Shown: positions 1 to 62,816 of the stretch, piece by piece | Numbering within the stretch: the first letter of the stretch is position 1 | Layout: each line of letters starts with the position of its first letter | Source: Candidatus Aenigmatarchaeota archaeon | GTDB lineage: Archaea; Aenigmatarchaeota; Aenigmatarchaeia; GW2011-AR5; JAGGXF01 | NCBI GenBank assembly: GCA_021163205.1 | Contig: JAGGXF010000003.1 | Coordinates: forward strand, 1,200 to 65,199 | Length of the DNA: 64,000 nucleotides | Direction: 5' to 3' | Position numbers and translations under genes: made by a program | The notes under the pieces: generated by a model | What the model was told of the DNA's origin: nothing | Seen by the model: the letters and a program-made list of their open reading frames with translations, nothing else | The model's database searches: none

Positions 1-814
1 TGAACTCATCAACTATCTCTTCTGGATAATCTAAAGAATATCGAGTTATCGTTGTCATGGCATTAAGGTTGAAATCGTTTTTGAATTCTTCTTTTATTCT
101 TTTTATCCAATAGACAACATCATCATATGTGCCCATGCCATTGAGATATTTTCTATTCTTGTTATGAACTTCTTTTGGCCCGTCTAGCGATGTTGCCAAA
201 CCCATTATATGATGTTTCTTAAGGAAATTTAGTTTGTCTTCATCAAATTTTGTTAAATTCGTGACAACGCTAAATTTCAGTTTTTTATTCTTTTCTTCTG
301 CCTTCTTTTCTGCGTATTCTATGACAAACTTCACAATATCAAAGTTCAGAGAGCAATCGCCACCTTGAAATTCTATTGACAATGTCTTTGCGGGCGATTT
401 GAAAATGAAATCCACAACTGCCTTTGCAGTGTCCTCGTCCATGTCATACCCTTCTGCGTTTTCCGGCTTAGCAACAGAATGACAATAAATGCAACGCTGG
501 TTACAACGAAAAGTAGGAATTAATATATGCAAAGACGGCCCATTAAAAAGAAAGCTATTACGCTCCCTGTATTTCTTAACGATGCGCTCAACGTTATTTT
601 TTGTTAATACCACTCCCTTCTCTTCCAGCACACCTAGAAGCATCGCATTCTCTCTAAGTTTCATAGACCTTAAAAGTCGATATTCATCATCAGTTAATAA
701 GACCCAGTCACCGTGATCAGTTGTCACTAGTATCTTGTCGTCTAACCTGAGGGTTCTGTAGAAATTTGGTATGTATCTCGAAGACAAATCAACACCAGAA
801 AAACTTTCTACCAT
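1..814 (-). CDS. radical SAM enzyme (N-terminal part; C-terminus lies beyond window start)
   Basis: Reverse translation from ATG (revcomp of 812-814) gives MVESFSGVDLSS...LHILIPTFRCNQRCIYCHSV..., a CxxxCxxC radical SAM cluster motif. The start overlaps the stop of the upstream small ORF (ATGA). The reading frame is open to coordinate 1. Confidence 0.7.
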   Translation of the reverse strand, partial: MVESFSGVDLSSRYIPNFYRTLRLDDKILVTTDHGDWVLLTDDEYRLLRSMKLRENAMLLGVLEEKGVVLTKNNVERIVKKYRERNSFLFNGPSLHILIPTFRCNQRCIYCHSVAKPENAEGYDMDEDTAKAVVDFIFKSPAKTLSIEFQGGDCSLNFDIVKFVIEYAEKKAEEKNKKLKFSVVTNLTKFDEDKLNFLKKHHIMGLATSLDGPKEVHNKNRKYLNGMGTYDDVVYWIKRIKEEFKNDFNLNAMTTITRYSLDYPEEIVDEF

Positions 815-1071
815 CACAACACCTTATTCTTGATAAGATACAACAAATAATTCATAAATTCATAACCAATTATTTCTAGATCCTCCTTTGAATCGACGAC
901 CTGTTTCGGCTTCAGAATAACCTTATGAATCTGCTCATTTTTTCTATCTTCAACTTCACAGACTTCTGAGTATTCTTCGATTGCCTTGTTAATGACTTCT
1001 TCTGGATAGAGATCACTATTAATGGTCAATTCTACTTTATTTTCATTCACAACTACATCATCGTTCATCAA
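814..1071 (-). CDS. small acidic protein, paralog A of tandem pair (possibly HxsD-like rSAM accessory protein)
   Basis: 85-aa ORF. It shares the motif (T/S)IN(S/P)x(L/I)YP(E/L)EVIxxA...K(L/P)K with the adjacent 173-aa ORF. It is translationally coupled to the downstream radical SAM gene. Confidence 0.5.
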   Translation of the reverse strand: MMNDDVVVNENKVELTINSDLYPEEVINKAIEEYSEVCEVEDRKNEQIHKVILKPKQVVDSKEDLEIIGYEFMNYLLYLIKNKVL

Positions 1072-1072
1072 T

Positions 1073-1594
1073 TCACTCCTCTTTTTTATTCTCTTCGCTT
1101 TCTTTTATTTTACTTTCTTCTTTGATATCCTCTTTAAGTTCTTCAGGCAGGTCTAATCCTTCTGCTTTTTCTGGTGTCCATGGTTCTGCTATGCCTTCTG
1201 GGTCTTCTATAAAATCAACGTCTTCTTCGTTGTCGTTGCCTTCATATTCATCCTCTGCCTGTAGATTTGTGCCAAGCGCTGCCTCAACAATTGCTTTTCT
1301 TATATCCTTGTTTCGAGCTGCCTGAACAACATAAACTGAGTAGTTCACAAGTTCGTTGTGGAACTCAAAAGCAGCCTTCTCTAGGTCTTCTTTACTTGTT
1401 GACTCTTTTGCTTTTAACTTGACTATTATCTCTGTTTCCGGGTCTCCATCTATTATTGTATAAAACTTGTCCAAGAAAACATACGCAGCTGAATATATGA
1501 CCTCAAGCGGATATATCTTAGGATTAATAGATATTACAACTTGGTTTTTCTCTTCTTCAACATCAATAGGAACAGGGACATCCAATAGAATCAC
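1073..1594 (-). CDS. small protein, paralog B of tandem pair with long acidic C-terminal tail
   Basis: 173-aa ORF. The N-terminal ~100 aa are paralogous to ORF 814-1071 (ISINPKIYPLEVIYSAAYVF vs LTINSDLYPEEVINKAIEEY). The C-terminus is a D/E-rich tail. There is a 1-nt gap to the next gene. Confidence 0.5.
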   Translation of the reverse strand: MILLDVPVPIDVEEEKNQVVISINPKIYPLEVIYSAAYVFLDKFYTIIDGDPETEIIVKLKAKESTSKEDLEKAAFEFHNELVNYSVYVVQAARNKDIRKAIVEAALGTNLQAEDEYEGNDNEEDVDFIEDPEGIAEPWTPEKAEGLDLPEELKEDIKEESKIKESEENKKEE

Positions 1595-1646: not shown

Positions 1647-2771
1647 TCATCTCATGATTACCTTAATCCAATTAACAAAACTTCCGTGGAACAGCAATGT
1701 TAAGATGTAGCCAAGTAAAAGAAAAATTGCGAACGGCTGTTTCTGGAAAACTAGAATCTCGTTGAAATCTATTTTTTTCTCTTTTTTCAGTTTCTTGATT
1801 TTTTCGATATCTTCTTTTGTTAGTTCACCTAAACTATGAATATATCTTTCCTTTCGTTGTTGAAGCGTTTGTATAAGACTTGTCTGGAGAAAGCTGATCT
1901 TTTCTATCTTTTTATTTCGTTTAACTATCCCCTCCGCAAGAATCATACCCTCTTTCAGTTTATTTATTTTAACACTTTTTGTATAAGAATGGTAAGCTAT
2001 ATGTAGAATAAAAAACCTGAAAACGAGAAATATAAATACACTAACAGCAAACTGATAGAGGAATGCTGCCGTGTATATATTTCTGTAGTCTATGATAATT
2101 CTAATGATTGCACACAAAACAAAAAAGGCTTCTGTTTTTGCCGTGAAAAACATACGCAAGATTTCATATGCTATGAACATTGCGAATATGGTAACGAAAA
2201 AATTAGATGGTAATTTAAAAAGTGAAAGAAAAGTCGTGAATAACCAGGCAAAACCAAGGAATATTACAGATATCAATACAATCTTGTAGGGCTCGAATGC
2301 GTACTTAAATGCTTTTTTAATTACATCTGCTCTTGCCCTCACCAGAAGAATTACAAAAATAAAGAAGAATATTGGCACGAAAGAGTTAACCAAATAGTCC
2401 ATAACCACCGATGAATGTTTATAAAGAATTGGTGGGAACAGGAGGCTCAATGCAAGAAAAAGCTTTGCATCACCAGCAGGCCACATACCCAGATGCCAGA
2501 AAAGGATTGACACCAGAAATGAAGATAAAAATACATTCACAAAAACCGCCGGCTCGATACCAAAATAAAACTGAAATAAGATAGCATATAGAAGTAATAA
2601 AGCAATATACCTGTTCCTGATAACACCTTTCTTTAGATCTTCATAGGAAATTAAAATTCCTATTAGAATAGGAAAAATAAACTCTATCACGAGAGTCCCA
2701 TCCACTTTTTCTTCAGTTGTATGCTTTCTAAGCAAGCTTTGATGAGTTCTTTGTCTCTCAATGTTTGACAC
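1647..2771 (-). CDS. A24-family prepilin/preflagellin peptidase-like polytopic membrane protein with C-terminal extension (true start probably downstream of 2771)
   Basis: Multiple TM segments. The motif WPAGDAKLF matches the GxGDxK catalytic-Asp motif of FlaK/PibD-type peptidases. The C-terminal soluble region resembles that of the second A24-like gene at 22815. Confidence 0.55.
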   Translation of the reverse strand: MSNIERQRTHQSLLRKHTTEEKVDGTLVIEFIFPILIGILISYEDLKKGVIRNRYIALLLLYAILFQFYFGIEPAVFVNVFLSSFLVSILFWHLGMWPAGDAKLFLALSLLFPPILYKHSSVVMDYLVNSFVPIFFFIFVILLVRARADVIKKAFKYAFEPYKIVLISVIFLGFAWLFTTFLSLFKLPSNFFVTIFAMFIAYEILRMFFTAKTEAFFVLCAIIRIIIDYRNIYTAAFLYQFAVSVFIFLVFRFFILHIAYHSYTKSVKINKLKEGMILAEGIVKRNKKIEKISFLQTSLIQTLQQRKERYIHSLGELTKEDIEKIKKLKKEKKIDFNEILVFQKQPFAIFLLLGYILTLLFHGSFVNWIKVIMR

Positions 2772-3121
2772 ATAGTATTGTTCAGACTTATACGAGCCAC
2801 ACAGAACGTCCTGATCTCCCAGTCGTTTATTTCATAACAGATAGAAATGTTATTAGTTATTTCTGCGACATCTCCTATGCAAAATGACTTATTGACATGC
2901 CCACACACCCGCTTACAGTCCTCCAATGTCGAATGTTCTGGAAGTGAAAAATTTTCTTCACAACTCTTGTAAATTTCATATGAAATGTTTGTTATATTAT
3001 TAATTGTGTTATTAAAATCCTTTACTTGGTTTGTAGACGACTGATTTAGAGATATAACTAGACAAAACAGAATGGCCAATACCAGTGCCATCACAACTAG
3101 TTGATATTTTGTCTTCTTCAT
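2687..3121 (-). CDS. small Cys-rich protein with N-terminal signal peptide/membrane anchor
   Basis: 144 aa with N-terminus MKKTKYQLVVMALVLAILFCLVISL (basic n-region plus hydrophobic h-region). The mature part has 8-9 Cys and many N-x-S/T sequons. Its start overlaps the stop of the upstream radical SAM gene (ATGA). Confidence 0.45.
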   Translation of the reverse strand: MKKTKYQLVVMALVLAILFCLVISLNQSSTNQVKDFNNTINNITNISYEIYKSCEENFSLPEHSTLEDCKRVCGHVNKSFCIGDVAEITNNISICYEINDWEIRTFCVARISLNNTMCQTLRDKELIKACLESIQLKKKWMGLS

Positions 3122-4038
3122 ATTCTGGTCACTTTATTTCCCAACACGGGCTTGAATTCATCCCAGCCATATTTTTGTGGATATTCTTTCCACGGACCTT
3201 CGCATATCAAATCAAACTTGCATTTTTTACAGCCTTCAAACTTGGCTTTGCCACTCTCCTTTCGCCACCTATCAAAGTCCTTGATGACAAGCTCAGCATC
3301 TCTGACCTCGCCTCTGGGCATGAATAACTCTGAACAATACTTCTCATAGCCCCGCATAAAGCAGAATGGGAAAGCTTCAACCATCATTCTCACACCACTA
3401 TTCTTCCCTATGTCCAAAGCCCTGTGTATGTAAGGTTTAACATCGCTCTTCCTAGGGACAACTTTGTCAAAATTTTTCCAGGCATTTCCAACAGGGTGAA
3501 CAAAAGCAAGTTGAAATTGGTCAACACCCAATTTTATGAGCAGTTCGGCAAGCTCTGGTAAAGATTTATAATTATATTTTGTGACAACAGAATTGGTCAT
3601 AACATACTGATCAAGCTCGACAAGATTTTTTATTCCTTGAACCGTCTGAGCAAAACTGCCTGGTGCACGCGTTTGCATTTCATGTATCTCTGCTGTTGGT
3701 CCGTGCAACGCTGGCGAGAATTCTGTTGCACCGGCTTTGATTATCTTCTCACAAAAATTCTTGTAGGAAAACATACGGCCATTTGACTGTATCTGGATAG
3801 CTTCGTAACCCAAATCCTTTGCATATTTTACTAACTCTAGAATATCCTTCCTTATAGTTGGTTCTCCACCTGTGAAAACAACTTCCGTGCATCCGTCTTC
3901 TTTGCCCTCTCTAAGATGCTTCTTCAGCGCGTCTGTTGTCTGGTCTCCCAGATGCCTCTTATGCGCCTGCGCACAAAAAATGCAGTTATTATTACAACGA
4001 AATCCTACCTTAAGGTCAAGCCTCTTTTGTAACGACAT
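3118..4038 (-). CDS. radical SAM enzyme
   Basis: 306 aa. Contains FRCNNNCIFCAQ (CxxxCxxC), a GGEPT glycine-rich SAM motif, and C-terminal Cys pairs (CKKCKFDLIC). Confidence 0.75.
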   Translation of the reverse strand: MSLQKRLDLKVGFRCNNNCIFCAQAHKRHLGDQTTDALKKHLREGKEDGCTEVVFTGGEPTIRKDILELVKYAKDLGYEAIQIQSNGRMFSYKNFCEKIIKAGATEFSPALHGPTAEIHEMQTRAPGSFAQTVQGIKNLVELDQYVMTNSVVTKYNYKSLPELAELLIKLGVDQFQLAFVHPVGNAWKNFDKVVPRKSDVKPYIHRALDIGKNSGVRMMVEAFPFCFMRGYEKYCSELFMPRGEVRDAELVIKDFDRWRKESGKAKFEGCKKCKFDLICEGPWKEYPQKYGWDEFKPVLGNKVTRI

Positions 4039-4121: not shown

Positions 4122-4940
4122 CTATAATATCGTAAACACGGTATAACCGATAGAGCACAAGACAAAAGAATGTTTCAGACCGCCTGTTAAAGAACCCTCA
4201 GCCATCTGTCCTATTGCCAAACCCGCGAATATACCTTGAATAACTATAAGATGCATAAAAAGTGTTTTAAAAACCTGTTGCATCTGACCCACATCTACAT
4301 CAGATTGGTATTGAAAAGCGGGCACTAAAAAATTTGAAAGACCCCACATAACACCAAGGAACACAAAGAATATGATATAGCCATTTATCATCTGTGAATA
4401 AACTCTTGATGAACGTTCCCTCCTTATGTTTTCTATTTCTTGTGCAGATTCGGCAACAGCTGTCAAAACCTCACCAATGTTTCCGCCGGAGCGATGCGTC
4501 TCATTTATCGTTTTAACAGACCTTCTTACGGTAGGGCTGTTTATCTGATTCGCAAAATTCGTCAAGACCTTCTCAAAGCTTATCCCCCAATCTATCTTTG
4601 CTATAATTTGTTTGACGTAAGGATTCAAAACACCATAATCGTTTGATTTTGTGGCCTTGACTGCCTGCGGCAATGTCATGCCAGCATTGATGTTTGCAGT
4701 AATGTCTCTTAGAAAAATAGGGAAAACTGCGTCTATCTTTTTTACCTGTAAATACTTCGCATATCTTATCCCAAGTGGAACGCCAAGAACTATCAGCGCT
4801 GATAAAAAATTCAAAGGAGCAAACCAACGAGTCCCCATAAACATGGTAAAGTTTATACTTATGAGCGAAAAGCCTATAATGAAAGCTATAACTGTCGTAT
4901 TGCTTATCTTTATGTTTTCTATTGATTTCATTATAGACAT
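4122..4940 (-). CDS. type II secretion system F-domain membrane protein (FlaJ/TadC-like, C-terminal half)
   Basis: 272 aa, polytopic. Its soluble segment (...SPTVRRSVKTINETHRSGGNIGEVLTAVAESAQEIENIRRER) is typical of the T2SS-F/FlaJ cytoplasmic domain. Confidence 0.7.
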   Translation of the reverse strand: MSIMKSIENIKISNTTVIAFIIGFSLISINFTMFMGTRWFAPLNFLSALIVLGVPLGIRYAKYLQVKKIDAVFPIFLRDITANINAGMTLPQAVKATKSNDYGVLNPYVKQIIAKIDWGISFEKVLTNFANQINSPTVRRSVKTINETHRSGGNIGEVLTAVAESAQEIENIRRERSSRVYSQMINGYIIFFVFLGVMWGLSNFLVPAFQYQSDVDVGQMQQVFKTLFMHLIVIQGIFAGLAIGQMAEGSLTGGLKHSFVLCSIGYTVFTIL

Positions 4941-4941
4941 A

Positions 4942-5895
4942 CTAGACCCTCGGTTGAGTGAAGTGTAAGAACATTATGAAAATTGTATTGAGCATTGGTA
5001 TAACTCCATACACTCCTATCTTCATAGCATCTGTTATATCCATACCCATAACTCTTCCACCTATCAAAGACATAACAGATAATATTGATATGAAAAATAA
5101 TGGTGCAGCAATCATGACAGCTGTATACAAATCGGCATACGTTGATAGCGTAGATAAGTAGTGTTCTCTTTTCAGTCTGTAGTTAAATAATGCTTCTTTC
5201 GCGGCGTTTTTCAAGTATTGCGTCAAAGAGCCTCCAGTATCTATCGTAGAAACTATACCAAAAAGAAACTGACGAAATTCATCGCTCGGCGTTCGAGACG
5301 CAACTTGCTTTATTGCAGAGGTTATATCCATACCAAATGTCTCCACGTTCCTTGTTATTACTTTGGCTTCGTTAGATATCTCTTCGTATTCTTTTATATC
5401 TCTCAAAAGCTTGAACATGACATAAGGCGGAACACCACTACTGGATATAGCAGCCATGTGATTAATGGCAAAAGGCATAACCGCCTCTATGCTGGACTTT
5501 TTAGAGCTTATCTTCTGAAAAGGATAAGAATGAAAGGTTACGAGGATGATGAGGGATGTTATGAGACTGAAAAGAAGTGAGCCTATGAGCGATGTGGTTG
5601 GCTCTATTCCAGCAACAAAAACCAGCAGAACCAGCATCCAATCAAAGATAAGAAAAAATGAGAGAAAAGTAAAAAAGAACATCTTCCCTACATACGTTTC
5701 GTAAACCATCCTCAAGTTCGATTGTTCTATTTCCTGCTTTATGGGTTTCAGGTAATTTGGAAAGTGCTTAATACCAAATCTAGCAAAAAATCGTATGGAT
5801 TTTTTATACAAGTCTTTGGCTTTTTTCCACAACGCTCTAATATTCATATCTGCCTTCATAGACAATACCATTCGAAATATTTTATAGCAACCCAA
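4942..5895 (-). CDS. type II secretion system F-domain membrane protein (FlaJ/TadB-like, N-terminal half)
   Basis: 317 aa. Carries a T2SS-F cytoplasmic domain (ITSAIKQVASRTPSDEFRQFLFGIVSTIDTGGSLTQYLKNAAKEAL) followed by TM helices. Its stop lies 1 nt before the start of the next T2SS-F gene, in a different frame. Confidence 0.7.
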   Translation of the reverse strand: MGCYKIFRMVLSMKADMNIRALWKKAKDLYKKSIRFFARFGIKHFPNYLKPIKQEIEQSNLRMVYETYVGKMFFFTFLSFFLIFDWMLVLLVFVAGIEPTTSLIGSLLFSLITSLIILVTFHSYPFQKISSKKSSIEAVMPFAINHMAAISSSGVPPYVMFKLLRDIKEYEEISNEAKVITRNVETFGMDITSAIKQVASRTPSDEFRQFLFGIVSTIDTGGSLTQYLKNAAKEALFNYRLKREHYLSTLSTYADLYTAVMIAAPLFFISILSVMSLIGGRVMGMDITDAMKIGVYGVIPMLNTIFIMFLHFTQPRV

Positions 5896-5912
5896 GATTG
5901 AGCAACACCAAA

Positions 5913-6608
5913 TTAAATTATGCTATCTGTTTCGAAAACTTTGTCGTGGTAGACAAAAAATCCCTGACTAGTTATATCGTATGGATGTAGTTTTCTCGAG
6001 TGCTCTGTTGCCCTCATTTTCAATATTGTCAGGACACGATGAAATTCCCCATTCTTCAACACCCTATGTAGTAATATGATACCATCAGTTACAAACTCTT
6101 CTATTCCGAAGCGTGAGATACCTTCTCTTATGTTTGGTATTTCTGATATCACGATCCCTGTGCACTTGTTTTTTCGAATAAGATTATTCAGTTGTTGCAT
6201 CATTATCCTTATGTCATTTTTATGACCTATATGCATACCCAAAGCAGATACAGAATCAATAACAATTCTCCTAGCATTTATCTCCTTTATGCTATTCTGA
6301 ATTATGTCCATGATATCTTCTATCCTAAATGGGTCGTATTTAACAAGCCTTAACTTATTTTCGTCTTCCATTTTTTTCAAATCCCATCCAAATGTTTCCG
6401 CAGTTTCTCGAATTTGATCAAGGCTTTCCTCGAAGCTTACAAATATCCCAGGTTCAGGAGAACTTACCAAGAAATGCAACCCAAAAATAGTCTTACCTGT
6501 ACCAGCAAAACCTGTCAGAAGAATTAAATCAGATTCCGGAACACCTTCTGGGACGAGAGCATCAAACCCCGGAATGTTGAATTTTATTCTTTTGATACTC
6601 ATCACCAA
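5913..6608 (-). CDS. KaiC/RecA-superfamily ATPase, FlaH-like
   Basis: 231 aa. Walker A LLTGFAGTGKTIFGLHF. It is the size and position of FlaH between the FlaI-like and FlaJ-like genes. Confidence 0.6.
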   Translation of the reverse strand: MVMSIKRIKFNIPGFDALVPEGVPESDLILLTGFAGTGKTIFGLHFLVSSPEPGIFVSFEESLDQIRETAETFGWDLKKMEDENKLRLVKYDPFRIEDIMDIIQNSIKEINARRIVIDSVSALGMHIGHKNDIRIMMQQLNNLIRKNKCTGIVISEIPNIREGISRFGIEEFVTDGIILLHRVLKNGEFHRVLTILKMRATEHSRKLHPYDITSQGFFVYHDKVFETDSII

Positions 6609-6675
6609 TTGTTCTAGTTATTAGATAATTAATTGTAATGAAAAGTTTTAAATCCAAATTACAGGTGTAATTGAA

Positions 6676-8400
6676 CTATTTTTCCATCATCTTGAGAACC
6701 TGCTCTGGTTTTTTCCTATATAATCTTATATATCGAACGACATCACGCCAATCAGAAAAGCTTTTGTTTCGCAGCCACTCAAGAACCTGTTTGCGTCGGG
6801 ACAGCTCTTGCTGTATTCTGCTCATTGAAATGCCCTTCTCTGTCGATATCTTGTGCAGAAGCCACGAATTTCCGTTGTACTCGTAACTATCTTCTGCCGC
6901 AACCCAAGCAAATGCCCTCGTATATTTAACCTTACCCGTGTCTTGATCAACCATACGTATTTCGTCAATTTCTTTGATACGTCTGGCGGATTTTCCTTTT
7001 TCGCGCGCATGAACAAGAATTATTACCAAGTCTAACGTTTCTATTAACCCTGGGGACAGATTTATTGGTTCTGTTTCCAACCTTTTTATGACAGCATCAA
7101 CAGAGCCAGCGTGCATAGTTGCGAGCGACGGATGGCCAGAAGCCATGCCTTGGAACATGACATATGCCTCTTTACCTCTAATTTCACCTACTATCAAATA
7201 GTCTGGGTTTTGCCTGAATGATTCCTTAAGCAAGTCAAACATCGTCACCTCGCCAGTTTCATCCCCGCCAAAACCAAGTCGCGACACGCCAGGTATCCAG
7301 TTCTCGTGGGGCAATGCCAGTTCCCTTGTATCCTCTATAGAAATGATTTTTGCCTCTTCTGGCATAAACAATGATATAGCATTTAGAAAAGATGTTTTGC
7401 CTGTTGAAACGCCACCACATATGAGAATGTTGACTCCGTTTTCAACAGCAAACCATAAATAAGCCATCATCTCAGAGGATGCTGTGCCAAGATTGATTAT
7501 ATCAACTGGTGTAAACGGCGTTTCCCTGAACTTCCTTATAGAAAATGTGGGACCTCTCGTTGTCACGTCTCCGGCAAGTGATGCTTGTACTCGCGTGCCA
7601 TCTGGGAGCGAACCATCCAGGAGCGGCTCGGCATAGCTTATATATCTATTGCATCGCTCTGCAAGCTTTATGACAAATTCTCTAAGTTCTTCTTCATTGT
7701 TGTAGACTATATTTGTTTTTATAGAACCGTACTGTCTGTGAACAACATATATTGGAATTCCTACACCATCACAACCAAGGTCTTCTATGTAAGGGTCATG
7801 TAAAAGCGGTTCTATTATGTTGAGACCAACAAAATCCCTATAAATGTAATACATAATTCTAAAGTATTCTGTTGTCGTCAAATGAAATCCATATTCATCT
7901 ATAAGCATCTGAACGTTCTTTTCCAGGTAATTCATAAGTTTTTCTTGGCTTCTCACCTCGCTCAGGTTGACATCAATCACCTGAATGAGGCCCTCCCTTA
8001 TTTTTTTCAATATTCTTTTCTGCTTCTCGCTAAGTTCCGGCTCTATGACATAATATATATACTCTTCTCGAACAGGGTCCCACATAATTCTGGCATAAGC
8101 ATACGGCTCTATCAGAGGATATCGCATAGTCTTTGGAATTTCCTTAGAAAACATTACAAACCGCTTCGGTGTCCTGAACCTGAATCTCGGATACTTGAAA
8201 TGAATATGTTCGACCTTTTTCAATTTATATTTTTTATGACCATATTCTCCAAGCTTTTTAAGCTCAAGAAGCTGCCCTGCTCGTGTAGTGCTTCTCAAAA
8301 CAGGCTTTCGATATACCCTTATAGTGTTATCTCTCTTCGTCAACTTCCTATACAAAAGTCCTCTCATAGATTTTATTTGATCTAATATGCTTTTTGTCAT
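6676..8400 (-). CDS. type II/IV secretion system ATPase, FlaI/VirB11/GspE family
   Basis: 574 aa. Walker A ICGGVSTGKTSFLNAI. Conserved secretion-ATPase core (ISIEDTRELALPHENWIP, DYLIVGEIRGKEA). Has an N-terminal domain typical of archaeal FlaI-like proteins. Confidence 0.8.
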   Translation of the reverse strand: MTKSILDQIKSMRGLLYRKLTKRDNTIRVYRKPVLRSTTRAGQLLELKKLGEYGHKKYKLKKVEHIHFKYPRFRFRTPKRFVMFSKEIPKTMRYPLIEPYAYARIMWDPVREEYIYYVIEPELSEKQKRILKKIREGLIQVIDVNLSEVRSQEKLMNYLEKNVQMLIDEYGFHLTTTEYFRIMYYIYRDFVGLNIIEPLLHDPYIEDLGCDGVGIPIYVVHRQYGSIKTNIVYNNEEELREFVIKLAERCNRYISYAEPLLDGSLPDGTRVQASLAGDVTTRGPTFSIRKFRETPFTPVDIINLGTASSEMMAYLWFAVENGVNILICGGVSTGKTSFLNAISLFMPEEAKIISIEDTRELALPHENWIPGVSRLGFGGDETGEVTMFDLLKESFRQNPDYLIVGEIRGKEAYVMFQGMASGHPSLATMHAGSVDAVIKRLETEPINLSPGLIETLDLVIILVHAREKGKSARRIKEIDEIRMVDQDTGKVKYTRAFAWVAAEDSYEYNGNSWLLHKISTEKGISMSRIQQELSRRKQVLEWLRNKSFSDWRDVVRYIRLYRKKPEQVLKMMEK

Positions 8401-11916: not shown

Positions 11917-12306
11917 TCAAATAGTAGGTCCTGGACCAATATCTATGCAGCGACAGCAATAATCTTCTCCTGGCAAGTCTGGGTCGCAATCCTCTTCATA
12001 CCCAATACACTTGAGCGTGCCAACACTTCTACATGATGTCGAATCATCTACACACAAATAACCTGTGTTGCATTTAGTAACACCCTGGCTTTGCTCTTGC
12101 TCGGCTTTCACAACCTCTATGTCTTGCCAATCGGTCTCCCCGGCAGAATAATAACAGCACTGGTCGGGCTTAGAAGAACCATAAGAACTTCTTACGGATT
12201 CTGGGTCGTATGGCGGCGTCAACGACGCCAAATAAAAGAAGTAAGGCACGCAGCCGCACTCGCTGTAGCATTTCTGGCCTTCAGGACATGTGTCGTCATA
12301 CTTCAC
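11917..12306 (-). CDS. Cys-rich hypothetical protein (15 Cys in 129 aa), GC-rich relative to surroundings
   Basis: ORF MKYDDTCPEGQKCYSECGCVPYFFY...DYCCRCIDIGPGPTI has CC and CxC motifs throughout. Local GC content is visibly higher than the flanks. No signal peptide is evident. The coding status is uncertain. Confidence 0.4.
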   Translation of the reverse strand: MKYDDTCPEGQKCYSECGCVPYFFYLASLTPPYDPESVRSSYGSSKPDQCCYYSAGETDWQDIEVVKAEQEQSQGVTKCNTGYLCVDDSTSCRSVGTLKCIGYEEDCDPDLPGEDYCCRCIDIGPGPTI

Positions 12307-12378
12307 GATCCAATACTTAAGAGCAAGTTCTTTCTATTATTTAAGATAATTTTTAATACATAGAAATTAATTTATTTC

Positions 12379-13080
12379 ATGCTCTCCGTGATTCTGCCAG
12401 TTCACAACGAAGAAGAAAATCTTAAGCGGAATTTCTATAAAATTTATAAAAGTTTTGTTGGTCTTGGCGAAAAATTCGAAATCATAATTGCTGAGGACGG
12501 CTCTACTGACAACAGCCCAAAAATCTGCGAAAAATTTAAAAAGGAATTCAAAAATGTAAGGCACATTCACAGCAATACTAAACTGGGCAAAGGAAAGGCT
12601 CTTACTAATGCCATTCTAAAATCAAAAGGAAACAAGATCTGCTTTATGGACATAGACCTTTCGGCAGATCTTAGACACATTAAAAAAATAATAAAATGCC
12701 TGGAAACAAATGATATTTGCATCGGTTCTAGATATTCGAGAAGGAGCAAAAGATTTGGCAGTATGAAAAGGCTCTTGTTAAGCAGAGTATACAACTTTCT
12801 GGTAAGGATGGTTCTTGGCTCCAAAATCAGTGACCATCAGTGCGGTTTCAAGGCTTTTCGCAAAAAAAGTGTTCTGCCGATTTTGAAAAGGATGAAAAGC
12901 AAAAGCTTTTTCTGGGACACGGAAATGCTTGTTCTGGCGCAAAGAGCGCGCCTGAAGATAAAAGAAATTCCTGTTGTCTGGAGGGAGGGAAAAGACACGC
13001 GAGTAGATGTCATCAAGGACAGCATCTCAATGTTCTATGGAATAATAGAACTGAGAAAAAGATTGTCTAAAGGGTTGTAA
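12379..13080 (+). CDS. family 2 glycosyltransferase (dolichyl-phosphate sugar synthase-like)
   Basis: 233 aa. MLSVILPVHNEEENL...IIAEDGSTDNS...MDIDLSAD carries the GT2 DxD/ED signature of the DPM1-like architecture. Confidence 0.8.
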   Translation: MLSVILPVHNEEENLKRNFYKIYKSFVGLGEKFEIIIAEDGSTDNSPKICEKFKKEFKNVRHIHSNTKLGKGKALTNAILKSKGNKICFMDIDLSADLRHIKKIIKCLETNDICIGSRYSRRSKRFGSMKRLLLSRVYNFLVRMVLGSKISDHQCGFKAFRKKSVLPILKRMKSKSFFWDTEMLVLAQRARLKIKEIPVVWREGKDTRVDVIKDSISMFYGIIELRKRLSKGL

Positions 13081-14107
13081 TAAAATTCTTGAAAAAGGTC
13101 AGCGCTGTTTCAAAAACTCGCGGGCCGAACATGTTTTGCGTGCAATAATAACAGCTGAAAACGCATCCCTCGCATTTGTGCGCGAGCCTTTTCCTTTTTT
13201 CATGGAACTCCTTGCTACCATACCATTCCAAAAAATCCTTGTCAAGAATATTTTTTTCCATAGAAAAATCCTGGCATATATAAAATTCTCCGTCAGGCAT
13301 TATATCGAAAAAAACCAAACCGGCCTTGCAGTTCCACTTGTTCTTCTGGCTTATGAGATATTTCTCAGACAAACGCAGATAATAAGGCGGGGTCATCATG
13401 CCAGAAGAGAAGTATTGTCTTTTCAACAGCGAATATGTTTTTTTGACATCTTCAGAGTTCAGGTAACCATCACCTCTTGGCCTGAATCCATAATCGTCAG
13501 AATAGTGAGAATACATCACAGGTGACAAAAAGATATTAACACCAAGTGACTTGGCGAAGCTGACTATTTCAGGCAACTCTTTTATGTTTTTTTCTGTGAC
13601 CATCGTACTTATGTTAATGTTCTGTCCTTTTGCCTTATTTTTGGCGAGAAATTTAAGATTTTTCATGACCGTATCAAAATGTCCCCGTTGTGCATTATGA
13701 ACCTCTCTTTTTAGCGAATCCAATGATATTGATATTAAGTTTATTTTCGTGTCCAGCAGCCTTTTGTACATATGCTGAGGCATAGTGCCGTTGCTTGTTA
13801 TTTGTGTCCAAAAGCCTCTTTTGTTTGCATATTCTATGAGGTCAAAAATATCTGGGTTCAACAGGGGTTCGCCACCTGTAAAAGATATCTGGACAACGCC
13901 CATTCTATCCAGTATGTCGATAATCCTGATGAAACCTTCCTTGGATAATTCTTTGGGTATGACTTTTTCTCTAACACCACAATACTTGCACCTCAGATTG
14001 CATCTTTTGGTGACATGCAAATGCGCAAAAAAAGGTTTGTTTCGTAAAAAAAAGTTTCTGCTAGTCCTTAGCAATATCTTTGCAGTTTTAGCTGAAAAAT
14101 CAAACAA
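13067..14107 (-). CDS. radical SAM enzyme with C-terminal SPASM domain
   Basis: 346 aa. HVTKRCNLRCKYCGV (CxxxCxxC). The C-terminus CKAGLVFFDIMPDGEFYICQD...CEGCVFSCYYCTQ has SPASM-type auxiliary-cluster cysteines. Overlaps the GT2 gene end by 14 nt (convergent). Confidence 0.75.
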   Translation of the reverse strand: MFDFSAKTAKILLRTSRNFFLRNKPFFAHLHVTKRCNLRCKYCGVREKVIPKELSKEGFIRIIDILDRMGVVQISFTGGEPLLNPDIFDLIEYANKRGFWTQITSNGTMPQHMYKRLLDTKINLISISLDSLKREVHNAQRGHFDTVMKNLKFLAKNKAKGQNINISTMVTEKNIKELPEIVSFAKSLGVNIFLSPVMYSHYSDDYGFRPRGDGYLNSEDVKKTYSLLKRQYFSSGMMTPPYYLRLSEKYLISQKNKWNCKAGLVFFDIMPDGEFYICQDFSMEKNILDKDFLEWYGSKEFHEKRKRLAHKCEGCVFSCYYCTQNMFGPRVFETALTFFKNFITTL

Positions 14108-19632: not shown

Positions 19633-19726
19633 GGGTCTGTAGTCTAGCTAATGCGCAAGCATCTAGAATGGTCTAGGATCGGGCCTTCGGGAGGCTCAGA
19701 CAGGAGTTCAAATCTCCTCAGACCCA
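19633..19726 (+). tRNA. tRNA-Pro(CGG) with putative 20-nt non-canonical intron in the D-loop (19649-19668)
   Basis: Acceptor GGGTCTG/CAGACCC. T-arm AGGAG-TTCAAAT-CTCCT. Anticodon stem-loop GGGCC-TTCGGGA-GGCTC (anticodon CGG, U33, G37). The D-region is 20 nt too long: AGC[TAATGCGCAAGCATCTAGAA]TGGTCTA. Confidence 0.7.
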
Positions 19727-62387: not shown

Positions 62388-62816
62388 TTAGGATACGGAA
62401 TGTGCCCAAGAATCTTGTATTGTCATCTGATTGGAACGAAGAGAAGCGGTTAAAAATATGGTGGGGCAAGAGATTGTGTAATTCACATCAAGATATTTTC
62501 CTTTTTTTCCCATTTCTTCTCTGGCGAACTCTATAAACTTGTTCAGATTTTTTGTGACGTTTGAGCAATCAGATGAGTCTATCACATTATTCAAGTCGGA
62601 TTGGATATTTTCAAAATAATAATCTTCATCTATGGTTGCAGAAGAAGAGGTATCAATCAAATAATAGCCCTTAAAAAGCATTGAAATTACAAGGAAAGCG
62701 CTGGATATGACAATAGCTGATATTATGAACCACTGCCCTTTTTTTCCAGCGAAATGCTCCGAGTTATGTGTCAAATCATATGATCTTGATAATCTGGGCA
62801 TGGAAACTATCACCAA
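62388..62816 (-). CDS. small hypothetical membrane-anchored protein
   Basis: 142 aa with a single N-terminal TM helix (WFIISAIVISSAFLVISMLF). Confidence 0.35.
   Translation of the reverse strand: MVIVSMPRLSRSYDLTHNSEHFAGKKGQWFIISAIVISSAFLVISMLFKGYYLIDTSSSATIDEDYYFENIQSDLNNVIDSSDCSNVTKNLNKFIEFAREEMGKKGKYLDVNYTISCPTIFLTASLRSNQMTIQDSWAHSVS

Follow-up and report, generated by a model that had tools for sequence, protein, structure and literature searches.

In bacteria, the His-Xaa-Ser (HXS) system HxsABCD (TIGR03976-03979) acts against phages by blocking the entry of their DNA (Nat Commun 2026, PMC13128918). Its effector is HxsA, an exported protein that requires localisation by a peptidoglycan-binding domain; 99.7% of HXS systems are found in Pseudomonadota, 99.6% have the gene order D-B-C-A, and the paper that describes them mentions neither archaea nor peptidases nor pilins (PMC13128918). 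NCBIfam already holds models for the type 4 components HxsA4, HxsC4 and HxsD_rel. Here we analyze a stretch of 64,000 nucleotides from a Candidatus Aenigmatarchaeota archaeon (contig JAGGXF010000003.1, hereafter the window) and, within it, a small cysteine-rich gene (2687..3121, minus strand, stop codon included) that encodes 144 residues and belongs to a family that we call domain B. The gene is translationally coupled between an HxsC4-like radical S-adenosylmethionine (rSAM) gene and an A24 peptidase gene, inside a cassette that is, on the evidence of its profile matches, an archaeal type-4 HXS cassette. The Cys-rich protein is more likely a surface accessory than a target of the rSAM enzyme, and we tentatively favor, at somewhat less than even odds, a role as a membrane-tethered adaptor or dock of the HXS envelope system.

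The gene order is hxsC-like, Cys-rich gene, A24, hxsD, hxsD-rel, hxsB and hxsA, with the last gene beyond the window edge; from hxsC to hxsB the genes are co-directional and overlap or lie at most 52 nt apart. The rSAM enzyme (3118..4038, minus strand, 306 aa) carries the motif CNNNCIFC and a C-terminal CxxCx5C auxiliary-cluster motif and matches PF04055 (7.6e-24). Its best NCBIfam matches, both below cutoff, are HxsC4 (NF038332; 181 bits, cutoff 500) and HxsC (TIGR03977; 122 bits, cutoff 268), and the HxsC4 model aligns end to end with the rSAM enzyme of the related locus L001. The A24 prepilin-peptidase-like protease (1647..2690, minus strand, 347 aa) has an Arc_PepC C-terminal domain (PF01478 at 30.5, threshold 26.5; PF06819 at 35.4, threshold 23.4) and a sub-threshold match to the EppA model (52.6 bits). 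HxsD (1073..1594, minus strand) scores 56.7 bits on TIGR03976 (cutoff 50), and the small HxsD-related protein (814..1071, minus strand) scores 54.9 bits on NF038315 (cutoff 41). The window edge cuts hxsB, an rSAM/SPASM gene, leaving its N-terminal 272 codons (2..817, minus strand), which show 89% identity by tblastn to the HxsB of L001; the latter scores 433 bits on TIGR03978 (cutoff 370). In L001 and L012, hxsA follows hxsB. The window's own hxsA is outside by about 1 kb, and none of the longer contigs with an identical Cys-rich protein reaches it. The HxsA of L012 scores 68.9 on HxsA4 (NF038313, cutoff 55) and contains about 18 H-x-S/G-S-H repeats; among the window and the loci gathered from relatives, His-x-Ser repeats were found in L001, L010, L012 and L033-L035 only. 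PADLOC 2.0.0, which contains no HXS model, returned nothing relevant for the window.

The archaeal cassette thus resembles the bacterial system in having HxsB (through its L001 orthologue) and HxsD above cutoff, an HxsC-like rSAM enzyme, an HxsA with His-x-Ser repeats and an export signal in orthologous loci, and all genes in one co-directional cassette. It differs in its gene order (C, Cys-rich gene, A24, D, D', B, A), in the insertion of two genes (those for the Cys-rich protein and the A24 peptidase) and in having HxsD-like genes in two versions. The archaeal HxsA proteins lack a peptidoglycan-binding domain, have many more repeats than their bacterial counterpart and end in a Cys-rich or Hint region. 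The genome belongs to a DPANN archaeon, and clusters at other loci have three to eight rSAM genes. The cassette also resembles the type 4 group of NCBIfam: HxsD_rel is above cutoff in the window, HxsA4 is above cutoff in L012, and HxsC4 is the best match of the rSAM enzyme, although that enzyme reaches only 181 of the 500 bits and no model covers the Cys-rich protein. HXS was reported to be near-exclusive to Pseudomonadota; the archaeal cassettes add rSAM paralogues, A24 peptidases, PMT_2 glycosyltransferases and tethered proteins with Cys-rich ectodomains. The Cys-rich open reading frame (ORF) is one such lineage-specific addition, and its product is predicted to be an extracytoplasmic, disulfide-stapled binding module.

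An earlier note on this DNA had described the ORF as coding for a small exported or membrane-anchored protein with 8-9 cysteines, and a genuine protein of this kind, translationally coupled to the rSAM gene, is borne out here. The N-terminus reads MKKTKYQLVVMALVLAILFCLVISL and contains a hydrophobic helix. There are 9 cysteines, 1 in the transmembrane (TM) helix and 8 in the ectodomain, amounting to 6.25% of residues compared with 1.1% across the long ORFs of the window. The start codon of the gene shares ATGA with the stop codon of the rSAM gene (AGAATATGAAG), the overlap that the note had reported, and the stop codon overlaps the A24 peptidase start GTG 2690 as GTGA. The note had also found that the peptidase ORF overlapped the Cys-rich ORF by about 85 nt, so that one of the two starts had to be mis-set; the wrong one is that of the peptidase. 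The overlap arises solely under the longest-ORF start GTG 2771, and the 27-aa N-terminal extension that this start implies is missing from all orthologues. The peptidase orthologues of L001, L012, L022 and L010 all start M[I/L]EF[I/L]FPI, a beginning that the window sequence matches at GTG 2690; on this shared start, the overlap is a longest-ORF artifact and the true start is, by sequence comparison, GTG 2690. This start places the first catalytic Asp of the peptidase at residue 18 (YED), ahead of the AGDAK motif. The junction between the Cys-rich gene and the peptidase gene is ATGA in L001, while in L012 and L022 an ATG follows 2-3 nt past the stop.

The note had let the gene stand or fall by its conservation and by the peptidase start. 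The ORF is conserved in at least 13 independent lineages, and a peptidase start at 2771 is unsupported. An NCBI entry with 100% identity, from a Ca. Aenigmarchaeota metagenome-assembled genome (MAG), is annotated as a hypothetical protein, and orthologues with 64-65% identity keep the same neighbors. In an exhaustive HMMER search of 1.84 billion representatives, 109 proteins reached E≤1e-3 and 40 reached E≤1e-10; a profile search of 90% clusters returned 30 members; the loci of relatives were gathered with a 12-sequence domain alignment. The family comprises about 40-60 clusters, and its named sources are all Aenigmarchaeota. For the pair L001/L002, dN/dS was 0.38 when the entire gene was compared and 0.17 for the domain, and for L012/L022 it was 0.24; the TM segment and the linker evolve much faster than the conserved domain. 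These substitution ratios indicate that the ORF is a real gene under purifying selection. That it might be no gene, the real feature being a longer peptidase ORF from 2771, finds its ground in the longest-ORF rule, which places the peptidase start there; the conservation of the ORF, the purifying selection on its domain and the lack of the 27-aa extension in orthologous peptidases refute a spurious ORF and leave that reading practically no probability. No model of Pfam, NCBIfam or PADLOC matched the ORF, the accompanying domain A (see below) or multi-repeat relatives above threshold, the sole Pfam match being a sub-threshold one of DUF6520 to the TM region (17.4 bits, cutoff 25.4). A PDB sequence profile search gave no match, and literature searches found descriptions of neither the family nor archaeal HXS cassettes. 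The Cys-rich protein thus represents an unannotated and undescribed family, so far from Aenigmarchaeota only.

Four parts can be distinguished in the protein. Behind a basic tail (MKKTKYQ), a signal-anchor spans residues ~8-25 (LVVMALVLAILFCLVISL; 3047..3100, minus strand), with a mean Kyte-Doolittle hydropathy of 3.26 over 18 residues; it contains neither a small-residue (-3,-1) cleavage site nor a [KR][GA] class III motif. By the positive-inside rule, the topology would be N-in/C-out (type II), with the domain presumably facing outward. The linker that follows is rich in Asn, Ser and Thr. The conserved ectodomain (residues 60-144; 2690..2944, minus strand) has the pattern LPEH..DC..FCxxDVAEIxNNIxxC..I..FCxAR..LNxTxC..L.D..L...CLESI..KK.W, and the consensus of the family is YPxHPxLxDCE...FCxxDVAEIxNNIxxCxxIxDPDIxxFCIARxxLNxTxCxxIxDxxLxxxCLESIxxKxxW. 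Six cysteines, spaced by ~12 residues (C69, C81, C95, C107, C118 and C130), are invariant in the family, together with A86 and E87. All single-domain members share the same layout of a basic tail of 2-20 residues, one strongly hydrophobic helix, a variable linker and a domain of ~85 aa.

An AlphaFold2 (AF2) model of the ~85-aa ectodomain, built on a 30-sequence alignment, reached a predicted local distance difference test (pLDDT) score of 85 and displays an all-alpha stack that resembles tetratricopeptide repeats (TPRs); input of three sequences gave an unusable pLDDT of 52. The ectodomain is thus confidently predicted to be a compact, all-alpha, TPR-like stack with a repeat of ~26 residues and two cysteines per repeat. 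In the window protein, the spacing of cysteines from C81 to C130 is 14, 12, 11 and 12, and in multi-repeat relatives it alternates 14/12, which gives a 26-residue period. A Foldseek search of the PDB gave no match at E≤0.001. Among single-domain members, 31 proteins have 6 ectodomain cysteines, 7 have 8 and 2 have 9, so that 38 of 40 counts are even; the multi-domain fusions have 10-22, every count being even. The two extra cysteines C54 and C73 are lineage-specific and always co-occur. This near-constant parity suggests Cys-Cys pairing, and we infer three intradomain disulfides, with C54/C73 as a fourth in the lineage of the window.

The closest structural parallels are the Sel1-like proteins HcpB and HcpC of Helicobacter, which are disulfide-bridged alpha/alpha repeat proteins; the repeat length is 34 residues in TPR and 36-44 in Sel1-like proteins. 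Like these two, the Cys-rich ectodomain would be an extracytoplasmic helix-turn-helix stack with a regular pair of cysteines in each repeat. Unlike TPR and Sel1 proteins, it has a repeat of ~26 residues, about three repeats and an N-terminal TM tether, and it showed no Pfam TPR or Sel1 match above threshold and no sequence match in the PDB. A wider unannotated superfamily, retrieved as weaker matches of the exhaustive search, contains up to seven tandem 26-residue Cys repeats (CYxxxAxxxxDxSxCxxI). It includes P0044, P0046, P0047, P0061 and ~60 others from a bacterium of the candidate phyla radiation (CPR), from Altiarchaeota and from unnamed metagenomic lineages, all annotated as hypothetical.

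The sequon richness that the earlier note had emphasized holds for the window protein and is not shared by the family. Exactly the 8 N-x-S/T sites that it listed were recovered, against a shuffled expectation of 2.0±1.25 (20,000 composition-preserving shuffles, 0 of which gave 8), and the density of sequons is ~12 times that of the window's long ORFs. In the 30 aligned sequences, however, only two sequon columns recur, N91 (N in 16, D in 14) and N114 (N in 23, D in 6, E in 1), and two family members have no sequon; the other sequons of the window protein sit in the non-conserved linker. The multi-repeat relatives contain 285 instances of the pattern [DN]-x-[ST]-x-C, in which D is commoner than N (172 versus 113). 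Because of this recurrence, the two domain sequons appear, from sequence, to belong to a structural turn motif of the repeat. Glycosylation of the window protein is plausible, though it would be no property of the family. The argument that sequon density proves glycosylation was rejected, since sequons are not family-wide and the recurrent sites alternate with Asp.

We examined the genomic surroundings of the family in 13 independent lineages, and three types of loci can be recognized. Loci of the first type resemble the window (the window with its duplicates L011/L029, L001, L002, L005, L012 and L021/22). In the second type (L007, L008, L010 and L018/L031), three or four tandem HxsC-like rSAM paralogues are followed by a gene for domain A and then by the Cys-rich family, the two domains being sometimes fused in the order A-B or B-A. 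In the third type (L006, L009/L025, L013/L023, L027 and L028), the family is found amid genes for glycosyltransferase family 2 (GT2), PMT_2, GtrA, DegT, epimerase, B12-binding rSAM (B12-rSAM) and SPASM-rSAM proteins, and giant Cys-rich surface proteins often follow. Of the 13 lineages, 10 have an HxsC-like rSAM gene at most two genes away, with both gene orders represented, and all 13 have some rSAM gene within ~7 kb; the rSAM linkage that the earlier note had seen at one locus is therefore a conserved one.

Domain A is a second unannotated, N-terminally anchored Cys-rich domain (CPIEYG..C..G...PFYNP...WCC..CY), encoded just upstream of the Cys-rich family or fused to it and also present in Diapherotrites. 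It occurs at L008 1875-2309, L007 4081-4524, L023 7564-8004 and L034 12489-12944 and in the fusions P0007, P0010, P0013, P0016 and P0025; the window contains no copy of domain A and no second copy of domain B. Genes for giant or very Cys-rich surface proteins (L031 4619-12088, L007 5266-10338, L023 9602-14512 and L033 13797-15926) directly follow domain A or domain B genes or sit within rSAM clusters. One such protein is at least 2,490 aa long, has a Cys content of 5.1% and contains 94 sequons and a subtilisin-like stretch; another has 49 Cys in 709 aa.

The rSAM enzyme itself is distributed far more widely. It has 2,484 cluster-level relatives at E≤1e-20, and the best 120 of them, all at least 57% identical, come from Aenigmarchaeota, Diapherotrites, Altiarchaeota, Micrarchaeia and Nanobdellota. 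In Ca. Fermentimicrarchaeum (L033, CP058998.1, Micrarchaeota), a pilin-like gene is followed by genes for A24, HxsD (45.1, just under the cutoff of 50), HxsD_rel (41.4, cutoff 41), HxsB (378, cutoff 370) and HxsA and by five more rSAM genes that include the orthologue. A Diapherotrites MAG (L034, JAOAJX010000001.1) has the rSAM orthologue, HxsB (429, cutoff 370), A24, a further rSAM and domain A, with HxsA nearby. In an Aenigmarchaeota contig (L035, WVXR01000359.1), hxsA lies directly downstream of PMT_2 and two B12-rSAM genes and is followed by the rSAM orthologue, A24 and six more rSAM genes; the same contig holds a member of the Cys-rich family ~30 kb away (L025). Common to the three loci are thus an HxsA-like gene and one for an A24 peptidase, along with 4-8 rSAM genes in each, hxsD and HxsD_rel being identified in L033 only. 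By their gene content, related HXS cassettes are present in at least three DPANN phyla, and this DPANN-wide, rSAM-rich HXS super-cluster with an A24 peptidase is a more notable lead than the Cys-rich ORF alone.

The earlier note had proposed the Cys-rich protein as a candidate substrate of the adjacent rSAM enzyme, of the A24 peptidase, or of both, and neither proposal was supported. Installation of crosslinks by the HxsC-like rSAM enzyme or its paralogues before export would agree with the 4-nt gene overlap, with the adjacency of the orthologous rSAM gene in both orders and of an HxsC-like rSAM within two genes in most lineages (10 of 13), with the clusters of 3-4 rSAM paralogues beside two anchored Cys-rich proteins, and with the C-terminal auxiliary-cluster motif of the enzyme; bacterial HxsA is a precedent for export after rSAM modification. 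We nevertheless consider this unlikely. With 2,484 DPANN-wide clusters against ~40-60 for the narrow Cys-rich family, the rSAM must have another protein as its conserved substrate. The cassette has a canonical HxsA, which co-occurs with the rSAM enzyme across phyla, and HxsA, given this matching range, fits the part of the dedicated substrate. The even parity of cysteines fits Cys-Cys pairs rather than Cys-to-acceptor thioethers, the cytoplasmic tail is only 2-20 residues with no leader peptide, and from the strong hydrophobicity of the signal-anchor one would expect the protein to enter the membrane co-translationally, so that a cytoplasmic enzyme would not reach its ectodomain. Fusions reach 440 aa, with extra unannotated sequence between domains A and B, and one genome has ~30 kb between the orthologous rSAM gene and its family member. 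Neither co-distribution with a maturase nor a leader or recognition segment, by which an rSAM-modified precursor is recognized, was found for the Cys-rich protein. QhpD, which acts on QhpC, and anSME, which acts on sulfatases, are cytoplasmic rSAM enzymes that modify an exported protein before its export. The locus resembles these pairs in placing a small, Cys-rich, exported protein beside an rSAM enzyme with an auxiliary cluster, and it departs from them in the range of the enzyme, which far exceeds that of the family, in the even Cys counts, in a signal-anchor in place of a cleavable signal, and in the presence of HxsA as dedicated substrate. Far less probable still is a class III, pilin-like substrate of the A24 peptidase, forming a subunit of a pilus-like structure built by the upstream ATPase and TadB/C proteins. 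The gene order (ATPase, KaiC-like, TadBC, rSAM, Cys-rich ORF, A24 peptidase) and the basic residues ahead of a hydrophobic helix invite this idea. However, the window protein reads KTKY/QLVV at the relevant position, only 1 of 63 family members has [KR][GA] at the start of its hydrophobic segment, and the N-termini vary across the family. True pilin-like signals look different, as in KKG/QWFIISAIV (window 62388-62801) or in KGQG/ATE and RRG/QISFDF (L033), and none was found near the operon, the sole candidate in the window lying ~59 kb away. The pilin reading was rejected because the family lacks the class III signal. The gains for annotation are a corrected peptidase start, an identified operon and the removal of a weak "rSAM substrate" call.

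If the Cys-rich protein is neither modified by the rSAM enzyme nor cut by the A24 peptidase, as we infer, it could be a module that, tethered to the membrane and facing outward, binds or docks exported products of the neighboring cytoplasmic enzymes. The likeliest partner in the window operon would be HxsA, an rSAM-matured, Sec-exported His/Ser-repeat protein. The Cys-rich protein could keep HxsA at the cell surface, or it could present HxsA to partners in the membrane, for instance the A24 peptidase, glycosyltransferases of the PMT_2 type or the type IV pilus (T4P)-like machine. By analogy, such a role would match the localizing job of the peptidoglycan-binding domain in bacterial HxsA and, if true, would explain how the effector is localized in an organism without peptidoglycan. 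The neighborhood agrees with the adaptor role at other loci, where the family stands beside HxsC-like rSAM paralogues, GT2, PMT_2 and domain A, to which it is sometimes fused, and TPR domains attached to PMT_2-type O-glycosyltransferases provide a parallel. Several points count against it. The proposed mechanism draws on gene neighborhood and fold class. L009/L025 and L013/L023 hold a family member and no hxsA within ±8-10 kb, so a single HxsA-docking role may not fit all members. Other DPANN phyla have HXS cassettes that do without the family, which makes it an accessory rather than a core part. A generic accessory of the envelope or of glycosylation, or a small surface glycoprotein, whose position in an HXS cassette is incidental to HxsA, is a less probable but substantial alternative; the protein could then be a trans-acting, TPR-like subunit or an acceptor in lipid-linked glycosylation systems of the PMT_2/GT2 type, or it could anchor the giant surface proteins encoded beside it. 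Family members located directly between GT2 and PMT_2 or beside GtrA, DegT and epimerase genes speak for it, as do the giant Cys-rich surface proteins encoded after family members, the 8 sequons and Asn/Ser/Thr-rich linker of the window protein, and a GT2 gene with a Cys-rich ORF ~9 kb off in the window. On the other side, the window operon itself has no PMT_2 or GT2 gene, sequons are no trait of the family (they are absent from two members, and Asp alternates with Asn at the recurrent sites), and PMT_2/B12-rSAM genes adjoin hxsA in L035, so that the "glycosylation" context may itself be part of an HXS super-system. The adaptor role remains our preference. A bolder extension of it, which we put forward as speculative, is that the DPANN HXS system is expanded and directed at the envelope, with HxsA cut by a dedicated A24 peptidase at the conserved EE[KR]G site, exported alongside the T4P-like machine and held or presented at the surface by Cys-stapled proteins; the ORF product would then be receptor or dock for an archaeal surface effector that acts against viruses or in host interaction.

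Type IV pilus-like genes (4122..8400, minus strand) precede the cassette and comprise a FlaI/PilB-like ATPase (6676-8400; Pfam T2SSE; NCBIfam FlaI 403 bits, sub-threshold), a KaiC-like protein (5913-6608; Pfam KaiC ATPase) and two TadB/C-like membrane proteins (4942-5895 and 4122-4940; Pfam T2SSF). Their adjacency to the cassette is repeated in L002, L012 and L021/22. The only pilin-like ORF in the window (62388-62801, minus strand) has a class III-type N-terminus, AGKKG/QWFIISAIVISSAFLVISM, and its product could be a target of the A24 peptidase (1647-2690). The region 11917-14107, about 9 kb away from the operon, contains a 129-aa Cys-rich ORF (11917-12306, minus strand), a GT2-like ORF (12379-13080, plus strand) and a 346-aa rSAM gene (13067-14107, minus strand) whose product bears a C-terminal Cys cluster, a trio akin in its gene mix to the glycosylation-type loci of the family.

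HxsA shows further features at the other loci. Its N-terminal motif SF[VIL][IL]EE[KRE]G.I[SH]K is kept across phyla (L001, L010, L012, L033, L034 and L035), and a signal-peptide-like stretch after the motif ends in PEVAA[AT]H in Aenigmarchaeota and Diapherotrites. The [KRE]-G pair of the motif resembles a class III (A24) site, making it a candidate A24 target or a recognition leader for the rSAM enzyme. In L010 (5562-6248, minus strand; CP070662.1, archaeon bin779), the His-x-Ser repeats of HxsA are directly followed by a Hint/intein-like domain (PF07591 1e-16, CFLEG...VHN), and the gene adjoins those for an A24 peptidase and a 341-aa rSAM enzyme; the Hint domain suggests that the repeat peptide is released by autoproteolysis or ligated at its C-terminus. 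In L035 (243-5174, minus strand), hxsA shares one strand with PMT_2 (GT-C, protein-O-mannosyltransferase-like) and two B12-binding rSAM genes, a gene order which hints that DPANN archaea may glycosylate and/or methylate HxsA, which is rich in Ser. Directly after hxsA in L033 (4864-5421) is a gene for a 185-aa multi-TM protein with HEFGH (HExxH), a possible membrane metalloprotease. Elsewhere in the window, Rfam identifies a tRNA of 94 nt at 19633-19726 on the plus strand (44.4 bits) where ARAGORN finds no tRNA in the window; it is probably of the intron-containing archaeal type.

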